A DNA stretch of 62,987 bases, filler included, from Sluysia triapertura (GCA_046118255.1; 4 parts of 4 records of this genome joined end to end with filler, not necessarily neighbours in it), one strand, 5' to 3'. Positions 5,387-7,880 are shown, counted from the whole stretch's first letter. Translations and numbers: made by a program. The notes: a model not told the origin generated them from the letters alone.

Positions 5387-7880
5387 TGGCGGCCAACACC
5401 CATAATTCAAAACTTTCTAAAACCTCACAACACCTAAATCACAATCATACTCAACATTATCAAATCACAACAGCTAGTTCACAAAAAACATAATAGCTAA
5501 ATCAATCACATTTCATACCATCGAATTACATTAACTGATGCATAATAAACAATATTCAACATTTATAATAATTCAATAACATATACATCTCAAACAATTC
5601 GTCTAATACTCTCAATCATTTACCTTACACTGTACTTTGATAATTAATACCGAATAGTCCATAACATTCACTCAATAGTCATCCTCCCAAACCAAATCAC
5701 AACCACAACATATAATATTAAAATCACAAATACATCAACACCATTCAAAAACATTAACAAGTACCTGAAACATAGAAAACATTTACGTTACAACCTAGAA
5801 TCAATTATACTAATTCAAACCCATTTAATCTACACATTATTAACATTCTACAACGACGTTGTAAATACGCCAAGATGTATTTTGTAATTGTCTTTTAAAT
5901 TTAATAAACTATAACCTTTAACAAGCCTTCCAAACCATTATATTCAGTGTATAAATTGTATTACCAACTATAAACTTTAAATAAACCACAAGAATTATTC
6001 TATCATTCGTCATTTTACTCACAGCTCAAATCATTTATGTTATCTTTAAAAATAAATTCAATACAGCTTTAAAGAATTCATTTTCTTATGATGAAGTAGC
6101 AACGATAAGTGAAACAAAGTGTACCACACTAGCGTTGCTCCTTCATATAATATCAATAGCTTTTATTCCTCAATTTTATTTCTTTTATGTAAGAAATTAA
6201 GATTTAGAAAGAAAAGATTTATGTGAATTATTCTTTGTTTCGTAATAATAATGACAATATTATTATTATTATTATTGCTACTAATATTATTATTAGCAAT
6301 TATTACATTATTTAAAAGTCCAATATTACTACCGTCATTAATATTGACACTTCTGTTCACCAATGTTATTAGAGTGTCAATATTGATGATGGTAATAATC
6401 AAAATTCATTATTTTTCACTGCCATCCAAACACTGTACATATCATTTAGTTTATTATTTCGAAGTCGTGATTGGATGGCCAACCCCATTTTACCGTAAAA
6501 TCAACAGCTAAAACTTTTAGAACGATATACAAAAACAAATTCTTTTTGTACCTCATTAACAAAAAATTTTAATGTTTTATTCTCAGTGGACTGAAAATTT
6601 AGATGTTACACAAAGTTTTGTATATTTAGTATTGTCTTCTAATAATATGATCTCATCGACTAAACCAAAACGAGAAAAATTAATAGATGAACAAGTTCAA
6701 CAAAAAACTGATCGAAATTTCCAAATCATAACTAAACAATTAGGTAATGAGAAACTATTTTAAGATGACTTAGAAAGCTATAACAATAAAGATTCTGACA
6801 ACAGCTCACGGATTATTTGTAATCGATATCATGCATCAAAAAACTACAAAATTTCACTTATTTTTCATGATCAACCAGGACAATCGACAATCGCAACAAA
6901 TGAACGCGATTGATTTAATTTTAAACTGTGTAATGCCTTGCATAAAATTAATGTTGGAAGATGATACTATGACTGATGTTAAAATTTATCTTCCTCGTTC
7001 TATTATTATAAACGAAATTTGGTGTAAAATTGATCGTCGTTTAACACTATGTTGTAAATCACGAGCGATTTATGTACCAAATTACGTCATCGGCAAAATA
7101 AATCATAAACAATTATACGTGTCAAAAGATGTTTATCTAACGATTTATAATTCATTGTTACCTAGAAAGAAAGTCAATCCGATTCTATTACTTGAAAAGG
7201 ATATTTTCTTAGTTAATAAACCGTTATTTCAGTGTGAACAAAAAAGGAAGTAAATCATCGACTTTTCCATTCAATACAGATAGTCTATTATATTTATTAA
7301 TTGAGAAGCATTTGTTACGATTGATGAGGAATCCATTGATAAGTGATAACGGAGATCGAGTGAATCGTTAGCTTTAAAGATGGAAATAGTCATTCCAAGA
7401 TGTTCTATTACACTACAGTTAATAGGATTAACTTATTCCTACCAGATCAACAATTAACTGTACCACTGGCAGTTAACGAAAGTATTGAATCAACTCCATG
7501 TACAATGAATCTATGCAAGTTTATGAGGAAGACTGTTCGTATGTAAGATTTGATTTTATATCTCTACCATTTTATATTTTAGATGACAAGTTTAGAAACT
7601 GGAACAGTGGAGAGCAACAAGATGTGGTGAAGTATAAATCTCAATCAATGGATGATTTATTCATTGAAGATAAATGTTTTGTTATATATAATAAAAATAT
7701 CTCATTTAAATTTTATGTATTTTTTTAAAAGACAAAAAGGATGGCTCAAACTCATTGGTTCTAAAGGTGAAATTATTGTCTTCTTATAAAAAGTATGATA
7801 AAGGAATAAGTTAATGTCATACAATAGCTAGAATGATAATTTTAAGTCTAAACCTATGTTTATAGAAATATTAGTAGGTG
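5387..7880 (+). mobile_element. Gypsy-leader-derived cassette, copy C: PBS-like motif, A/C-rich leader, (TTA)n, hairpin, orphan ORF
   Basis: Starts TGGCGGCCAACACC (5387). A/C-skewed leader resembles 14100-14700(-) and 50327-50920(+). Hairpin at 6331-6393; decayed ORF at about 6440-7800. Confidence 0.55.
6780..7780 (+). pseudogene. Decayed intronless orphan ORF; N-terminal part possibly macrodomain (TARG1/OARD1-like)
   Basis: ORFs 6831-7253 and 7498-7728 are separated by stops/frameshifts. KFHLFFMINQ...LILNCVMPCIKLML...VKIYLPRSIIINEIWCKIDRRL loosely follows the TARG1-type pattern IF.L.TK...L...L...I.MPRIG.GL..L.W..V. By-eye similarity only. Confidence 0.35.

Follow-up and report, generated by a model that had tools for sequence, protein, structure and literature searches.

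A long hairpin recurs in the genome of Sluysia triapertura between G-poor leaders and different downstream open reading frames (ORFs), and we tentatively read it as a DNA-level end signal of a non-autonomous Helitron2/Helentron-like rolling-circle element with its transposase encoded elsewhere. The hairpin is a real feature, and the analysis establishes its stems, the homology among its copies, the complementarity of a left motif with a hairpin arm in two units (A and C), the multicopy status of the units and the different ORFs lying downstream. The preliminary description of this DNA was only partly sustained: homology, compensatory change and a position between leader and ORF stood up to analysis, while its retroelement frame is weak and its pre-miRNA option disfavored.

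The window, i.e. the whole stretch of DNA analysed (GCA_046118255.1; 62,987 nucleotides in length including filler), joins four record parts that are not necessarily neighbours and is AT-rich (GC 14-32% per kb), with abundant (ATT)n and scaffold gaps. Remnants resembling Tc1 and mariner transposons, together with spliced exons, suggest eukaryotic DNA of an animal, probably an arthropod. Three gaps (21986-22085, 33735-33834 and 51843-51942) are composed of 44 N, a 12-nt all-frame-stop spacer and another 44 N, and represent an assembly artefact. Four units, called C, A, D and E, were recognized. Their common order runs from a left repeat and a non-coding leader poor in G to hairpin 1, (ATT)n, main hairpin, hairpin 3 with CCAAT, and decayed orphan ORF; the placement of the main hairpin between a shared leader and the ORF holds. 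Hairpin 1 is present in C and A only, (ATT)n in C, A and E, and a G-poor tail in C and A. Unit sizes fall at about 2.4, 2.7, over 2.7 and 3.0 kb. The leaders (780-1250 nt, G 3-8%) are non-coding without codon periodicity; in the decayed ORFs, G and C are balanced. The depths given below were summed over contigs of one public DNA run compared with window positions 5000-21900 (units C and A) and are a rough ratio, not a copy number.

Unit C lies on the plus strand. Its left motif, the 'PBS' of the preliminary description and our candidate left inverted repeat, occupies 5384-5397, and the first 9 nucleotides of it pair with 6332-6340. The leader (5384-6329) is non-coding with 6% G, 21% C and no mod-3 periodicity, is 69% identical to the leader of unit A, and reaches depths of 14,900-23,700 in its high-copy 5' part. 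Within it are an imperfect hairpin 1 (6086-6150), homologous to 14146-14223 in unit A (RNA folding z −3.2 and −4.0), and an (ATT)n microsatellite called by TRF (6258-6295). The main hairpin is followed by hairpin 3 with a CCAAT box (6421-6479, z −2.4), a decayed orphan ORF with stops and frameshifts (6648-7728, multicopy, depth 720-1,010) and a tail identified by its G-poor composition (7830-8350). The multicopy stretch ends near 8400, where depth falls from 939 to 119. Just past the end of this unit, at 8341-8613, six short palindromes of the GGTT..AACC type with loops of 8-11 nt are spaced at about 50 nt in DNA of mostly single-copy depth.

Unit A is on the minus strand. T-rich DNA precedes its left motif (14691-14702), the candidate left inverted repeat, which is itself an imperfect palindrome and forms 12 bp with 13919-13930. 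Its leader (13931-14702) contains hairpin 1 (14146-14223) and (ATT)n (13988-14025), and depth is 82,000 in 14024-14587. Downstream come hairpin 3 with a CCAAT box (13761-13814), identical to hairpin 3 of unit D at 17 of 21 nt (reached by 0 of 60 shuffles), a decayed orphan ORF (12532-13620, depth 930-2,970) whose longest open piece of 182 aa spans 12827-13372, and a tail with 6% G (12300-12550), depth dropping to 66 below 12332. Unit D, also on the minus strand, has lost the start of its leader (28603-29853, G 8%) in an N gap (29854-30129), and the remaining leader aligns weakly to those of C and A (z 2.4 and 3.1). Hairpin 3 of this unit carries three CCAAT boxes (28435-28509, z −3.5), and the decayed orphan ORF (27150-28350) has a 74-nt candidate intron (27307-27234) predicted from its sequence, followed by the last open stretch and AATAAA. 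Directly past the 3' end of unit D, a decayed transposase piece on the plus strand (26500-27060), which we take to be Tc1-like, was not confirmed by Pfam. Unit E (50327-51212, plus strand) comprises a left motif at 50327, a G-poor leader, (ATT)n and a decayed main hairpin, and orphan ORF pieces of 103 and 139 aa lie on either side of an N gap in 51579-52691.

Hairpin 3, of about 10-13 bp, stands 90-150 nt beyond the main hairpin. Nine CCAAT boxes occur in the four 250-nt intervals between hairpin and ORF, against a GC-matched mean of 2.4 (0.5% of 20,000 simulations). Given that these boxes are downstream of the hairpin, they suggest that the ORF mRNA would start downstream of the hairpin as well.

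To define the main hairpin, we scanned both strands of the window for every loop of 4-40 nt closed by at least 15 continuous pairs (Watson-Crick or G.T) with at least 3 G-C. Exactly three loci were returned, and their coordinates (6331-6393 on the plus strand, 13866-13924 and 28540-28602 on the minus strand), arms and loops are all as first described. The C hairpin (6330-6394, plus strand) has a 23 bp stem, with the outer 5' arm at 6332-6340 as right inverted repeat and TTCAC at 6356-6360. The A feature (13865-13930, minus strand) combines the hairpin at 13865-13925 with the right inverted repeat at 13919-13930, and the outer 5' arm of the D hairpin (28540-28602, minus strand) contains a stretch exactly complementary to the hexamer with which C and E begin. 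In the decayed copy of unit E (51143-51212, plus strand) TTCAC is kept and the fold is lost (z −0.4). The loops had been reported to share (A/G)TTCAC; TTCAC is indeed found in all three intact loops and in the decayed fourth copy, i.e. in 4/4 units. A pattern of the inner arms plus TTCAC, derived from these same copies, matched three times in the window and never in 100 shuffles.

In element orientation, the stem of C has 20 Watson-Crick and 3 G.U pairs out of 23 and that of D has 19 and 3 out of 22, while the 21 pairs of A comprise 15 Watson-Crick, 5 A.C and one terminal G.U. These pair tables bear out the earlier observation that G.U falls on the element strand in C and D and on the opposite strand in A. 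None of the 12 non-Watson-Crick pairs across the three stems is a transversion; given a transition share of 59% from the run comparison, this all-transition pattern has a nominal chance of 0.002, which is overstated because stem ends are set by the first bad mismatch. RNA folding relative to 200 shuffles gave z scores for the element and opposite strands of −7.3 and −5.7 in C, −5.7 and −3.7 in D, and −2.1 and −5.5 in A. As DNA, the unbulged stems of C and D fold on both strands (z −3.8 to −5.7), and A folds poorly on the element strand (z 0.05). With basal extensions, the stem measures about 35 bp on the element strand of D and on the opposite strand of A.

An uninterrupted alignment links the C leader, between 5636 and about 6318, with that of A (z 32), without extending past the hairpin (z 0.9), and on this alignment the two units are positional homologues. 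By contrast with C and A, whose alignment stops at the hairpin, similarity between A and D continues past the main hairpin into hairpin 3. For unit E, alignment gave z 3.8-5.4. Homology with compensatory change had been claimed for these copies, and both sides were changed in 5 of 20 pairs (6 of 60 cells) in the three-row alignment, in agreement with that claim. Five measures of covariation were reached by 2-26 of 500 shuffles, and all six slid controls scored lower. The covariation is therefore suggestive, although three related rows from which the structure was itself read cannot prove selection. Arm identity among the three copies is 12-16 of 20, compared with 10-14 of 21-22 for the loops, and arm sequence conservation (typically 60-65%) is not above that of the leader (69%). 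A covariance model search of the window gave no further significant copy; the hairpin of unit E scored 10.2 bits (E 4.6), which is not significant.

Elsewhere, two metagenome pattern scans had 0 matches, and a looser pattern gave 86 viral matches lacking the outer stem, 83 of which have at most 7 of 15 flanking Watson-Crick pairs. One viral contig (L058:1485-1552) carries a long palindrome around the same inner arms with 12 of 15 flanking Watson-Crick pairs, probably an unrelated phage palindrome. Within the window, TGGTCGC motifs at 56166 and 56515 on the minus strand, with A/C-rich DNA after 56166 and a weak likeness to the A leader (z 2.7), possibly mark an ancient fifth unit. Another small repeat family (53444-53740 and 26030-26330, plus strand, z 7.7) starts with TG(C/T)GGTGG and continues A/C-rich, and no long hairpin was found in it. 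A decayed, multicopy transposase piece at 19700-20400 on the plus strand, presumably mariner-like, has no Pfam match and is not a fifth unit. Other occupants of the window are a tRNA-like fold that is probably SINE-derived (48078-48167, minus strand), a weak Rfam tRNA match of 34.4 bits that ARAGORN did not call (37158-37227, plus strand), and a decayed reading frame without a Pfam match (61400-62250, minus strand), which looks to us like a non-LTR ORF1.

The preliminary description had interpreted the left motif as a PBS and the hairpin as a candidate packaging signal or IRES. This retroelement frame is weak, since there is no LTR and the arm of the hairpin is what the motif pairs with; the 'PBS' does not behave like a primer site. 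In a search for LTRs, the upstream flanks matched neither each other nor the far unit ends (z −1.4 to 0.3), and all 16 comparisons of leader with tail for a terminal repeat remained at z of at most 1.7. Depth at 14804, 100 nt upstream of the A motif, is 24.7, which is single-copy level. Four loose matches to hammerhead cores occur in the window, none of them at the hairpins and none convincing.

What the left motif does match, in A and C, is the outer half of the 5' arm of the hairpin 770-950 nt away, of which it is the best complement. The A duplex (14691-14702 with 13919-13930) is 12 bp in length, with 11 Watson-Crick pairs and one G.T; no other site in the 2.4 kb unit pairs better with the motif, none in 2 kb upstream pairs better with the arm, and none of 3000 random 30-mers or 2000 shuffles did as well. 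Paired with the arm of its own unit, the A motif scores 29, against 13-17 for the arms of the other three. In C, the duplex of 9 bp (7 Watson-Crick and 2 G.T) is likewise the best in both directions (3 kb unit for the motif, 2 kb upstream for the arm) under a rule of Watson-Crick plus G.T. Its margin is small (20 vs 18), with 7 of 3000 random 30-mers and 5 of 2000 shuffles doing as well, and it is outranked by other sites if A.C is allowed or if it is scored as a DNA duplex. The same test fails for the decayed unit E, where 5.5% of random controls did as well, leaving reciprocal-best complementarity in two of the three testable units; in D the start that would face the arm lies in the N gap. 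One position shows in-register compensatory change between motif and arm, T-A in A being replaced by C-G in C. At two of the five A.C mismatches in the A stem, the 5' arm agrees with the left motif and not with the 3' arm, which explains part of the strand puzzle of A, and the remaining three run in the same direction as the G-poor, C-rich bias of the leader. When the whole A leader was folded, the left motif took the arm with a probability of 0.56-0.98, whereas in C the hairpin won.

Unique pieces within the compared region had depths of 8-21 with 0-1 differences. Summed depth was 720-2,970 over hairpin and cargo and 15,000-82,000 over leaders, so that, as a rough ratio, units C and A are multicopy, each cargo type being present in tens to low hundreds of copies, and leader-like sequence is far more abundant. 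Hairpin depth travels with that of the cargo (2,078 at 13890), and a large depth step occurs near hairpin 1. Among the joints listed (15 of 657), there was no empty site. Extremely abundant repeats (summed depth 130,000-510,000 in this one run) lie at 15152-16279 and 21356-21900, and 21505-21612 recurs in inverted orientation at 41615-41720. Several GT/AG-bounded exons on the plus strand at 15200-20700 form an apparent host coiled-coil gene in single-copy DNA, without a Pfam match.

Comparison of the ORFs carried by C, A and D over 27 frame pairs showed no alignment between them (best z 2.7), and no host parent was found for any cargo. For ORF A, neither Pfam, PHROGs, Atlas, viral contigs, 1.84 billion representatives nor two word-indexed searches gave a homologue, the PDB sequences gave only a T-box match (E 0.059), and a protein search with an ORF E piece was likewise without a relative. 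Frames of cargoes C, A and D and the leaders, with X at stops, gave only sub-cutoff matches to Pfam; the ORFs tested matched no Pfam or PHROGs family and no Rep, capsid or movement protein, and none of the searched frames of the window encodes a Rep/helicase. Single-sequence structure models of the A and D pieces (pLDDT 37.6 and 38.5, mostly strands) are uninformative, and Foldseek with the A model returned 0 matches at E 0.001. A resemblance of cargoes A and D to a 30K movement protein or an RPA OB-fold is supported by no search, and genetic code 4 did not open the cargo frames.

The reading of the hairpin as a Helitron2/Helentron-type end signal is favored by the repeat pair, the unbulged stem, the internal microsatellite, the multicopy status and the lack of an LTR pair or far-end partner repeat, and the candidate intron in cargo D suits DNA copying. 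Of the features of HLE2 elements, a subterminal or asymmetric inverted repeat pair of 11-17 nt has its counterpart in A (12 bp) and C (9 bp with 2 G.T) and not in E, and an internal microsatellite, no coding capacity between the repeats and high copy are all found. Where a short stem-loop is expected, at or just after the right repeat, a stem is present that measures 21-23 bp and overlaps the repeat, with hairpin 3 further on. No element end is seen 38-60 bp after the right repeat, depth remaining at about 10^3 through the cargo. Of the HLE1 hallmark, a palindrome of 16-20 nt with a 3' CTRR end about 11 nt further on, there is no sign, as no CTRR is shared at that spacing and the stem is too long. 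Further against a Helitron2-type end, the read data do not show the hairpin terminating a short element of high abundance, given its cargo-like depth and the step near hairpin 1, and in units A and D conservation extends beyond it as far as hairpin 3, so that no clean terminus follows. Within the window, no Rep/helicase transposase, empty site, TT insertion or terminus was seen. Moreover, a leader strand rich in A and C and poor in G would be more typical of the plus strand of a retroelement.

Published elements provide the frame for this reading, with canonical Helitron features as reference (PMC3789558). Helitron2-type elements have subterminal inverted repeats of 12-15 bp, the right one 38-60 bp from the end, together with microsatellites, T-rich sites and a palindrome that is short (PMC4067079). 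In DINE-1, compensatory change maintains stems of 7-11 nt, which may bring rolling-circle copying to an end (PMC2374699); the right repeat of FoHeli1/2 is itself part of a hairpin (PMC5148889); a proto-Helentron has a 12-nt pair with one mismatch and a 3.6 kb extension outside it (PMC11417382); and gene capture is, in its standard model, a result of bypassing the hairpin (PMC6431247). In the units described here, the left repeat of 9-12 nt and its copy in the outer 5' arm could mark both ends for Rep/helicase on displaced single-stranded DNA, and the long stem, once folded, would expose its TTCAC loop as a signal for pausing or cleavage. Copying past this signal could have fixed a promoter and an ORF (1.5-2 kb) at the origin of each subfamily; alternatively, on the other strand, the ORF-bearing sequence would be an extension outside the inverted-repeat pair, as in proto-Helentron. 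The units would be copied by a helper transposase elsewhere in the genome, and changes in the arms would be tolerated wherever pairing between the two arms, and with the left motif, is preserved.

Among the alternatives, the most probable, though still unlikely, is that a retro-type, non-autonomous element has the hairpin as an RNA structure in its leader. Here, the stem and the pairing of the arm with the 5' end would be alternative folds switching packaging, priming or splicing, which would suit the capture of the arm by the motif in A and the survival of the hairpin in C. The G-poor, A/C-rich sense strand of leader and tail and the G.U pairs on the element strand in C, D and both left-motif duplexes point the same way, as does an apparent likeness of the A motif to the complement of the tRNA-Leu 3' end. 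The loop also reads like a branch point (TTCAC, with TTAG 13-14 nt later), so that it may hide a 3' splice site, and donor-like GTAAG/GTAG lies about 140-250 nt upstream in 4/4 units; however, TTAG is confined to C and A, the loop AG being absent in D and E. Such an RNA switch is further opposed by the absence of LTRs or a tail repeat, by a motif that varies between units in step with the arm and not with one tRNA, by the candidate intron in cargo D, by CCAAT boxes downstream of the hairpin and by the five A.C pairs in A. More doubtful still is an undescribed animal gene shuttle, in which one control module (inverted-repeat pair, three stem-loops and CCAAT promoter) would be common to many units of 2.4-3 kb, each with a different orphan gene and helper-amplified to tens or hundreds of copies, like a multipartite virus in the germline. 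A literature search not aimed at the host species found no description of a unit with this anatomy, which is weak evidence of novelty.

The remaining explanations appear improbable. Integrated copies of a multi-component single-stranded DNA virus-like replicon, with the leader and three stem-loops as common region, one-gene components of 2.4-3 kb and the hairpin as nicking origin, could account for similar unit sizes despite unrelated ORFs and for the order stem-loop, promoter, single ORF and poly(A) signal. A variable stem with a conserved loop is typical of such origins, at which template switching keeps arms paired (PMC2690592). However, the AxTAxTAC octamer is absent from the three intact loops, the stems are twice the described 10 bp, units begin at the left motif and not at the loop, no viral protein was matched among the ORFs tested, and 0 of the 86 viral pattern matches share the stem, bar the unrelated-looking phage palindrome. 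We assign no greater probability to pri-miRNA or short hairpin-RNA precursors carried by the repeat, with hairpins 1-3 as a small cluster. Although the size (61-65 nt), the basal extensions in D and A and the neighbouring hairpins would fit, the option of a pre-miRNA-sized hairpin raised at the outset is disfavored by the lack of a 7-mer common to the three copies and by loops as conserved as the arms; the better-folding strand differs between copies, and Rfam had nothing at gathering score, the best sub-threshold miRNA shape reaching 26.5 vs 50.2 bits. Least probable is unselected pairing, i.e. an old inverted duplication homogenised by template switching between arms as the repeat multiplies. 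It is compatible with arms no more conserved than the leader, with the lost stem of unit E and with covariation resting on three rows, and it explains neither a motif tracking the arm 770-950 nt away nor the fixed position and TTCAC in 4/4 units. A small probability, similar to that of the viral and miRNA explanations, is left for something other than those named. Two further candidates were dropped: a hepadnavirus-like epsilon, a stem-bulge-stem-loop after DR1 with a TP-RT partner (PMC12691608), given that the stems are unbulged and no RT was matched, and Troyka, which has LTRs and CG ends (PMC12440569).

If the Helitron2 reading is true, end signals of this type extend to a stem 2-3 times longer with a conserved loop, and an animal element systematically carries promoter-bearing orphan genes. 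The covarying motif-arm pair would then make the end-recognition rule testable by compensatory mutation. A gene shuttle, if true, would be a new route to swap and multiply orphan genes, and if neither is true, the units represent one more decayed repeat family.

Compared with known systems, a G-rich TGG motif opening an A/C-rich leader and a stem before the ORF recall an LTR retrotransposon leader, from which the units differ in having no LTRs, a motif that pairs with the arm and no gag/pol match. Variable arms, a conserved loop and an adjoining promoter and ORF are shared with circovirus/nanovirus origins, whereas an octamer or nonamer and Rep are missing, the stem is longer and the start is linear and fixed. 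As in HLE1 end-bypass gene capture, the hairpin is followed by variable gene-like cargo with possible intron retention; unlike HLE1, no 5' TC or 3' CTRR ends were found, and the hairpin is far longer than the 16-20 nt palindrome given there. Proto-Helentron and HLE2-reverse elements (HelenPi572, FoHeli3-5) similarly have a 12-nt pair with one mismatch that encloses only part of the element, with kilobases outside one repeat; in proto-Helentron, by contrast, Rep/helicase is located inside, the stem-loop being at the extension's far end, whereas here, in an animal host, a large stem and the inner repeat overlap. Relative to non-autonomous HLE2 elements, the units stand apart in a 21-23 bp stem against the 5-11 bp described (HELIANO figures S17-S18 and the terminal tables of PMC4067079 may hold longer ones), a loop of 19-21 nt with a conserved pentamer, and 1.5-2 kb of promoter plus ORF beyond the hairpin in 4/4 units. 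What they have in common with DINE-1, HINE and FoHeli1/2 is a left inverted repeat of about 12 nt with its partner in or beside the hairpin, a covarying stem, an internal microsatellite, non-coding sequence, high copy, no LTR and a T-rich left flank in A and E. Taken together, the hairpin likely works like an HLE2 end, yet we do not file it as a member of HLE2.
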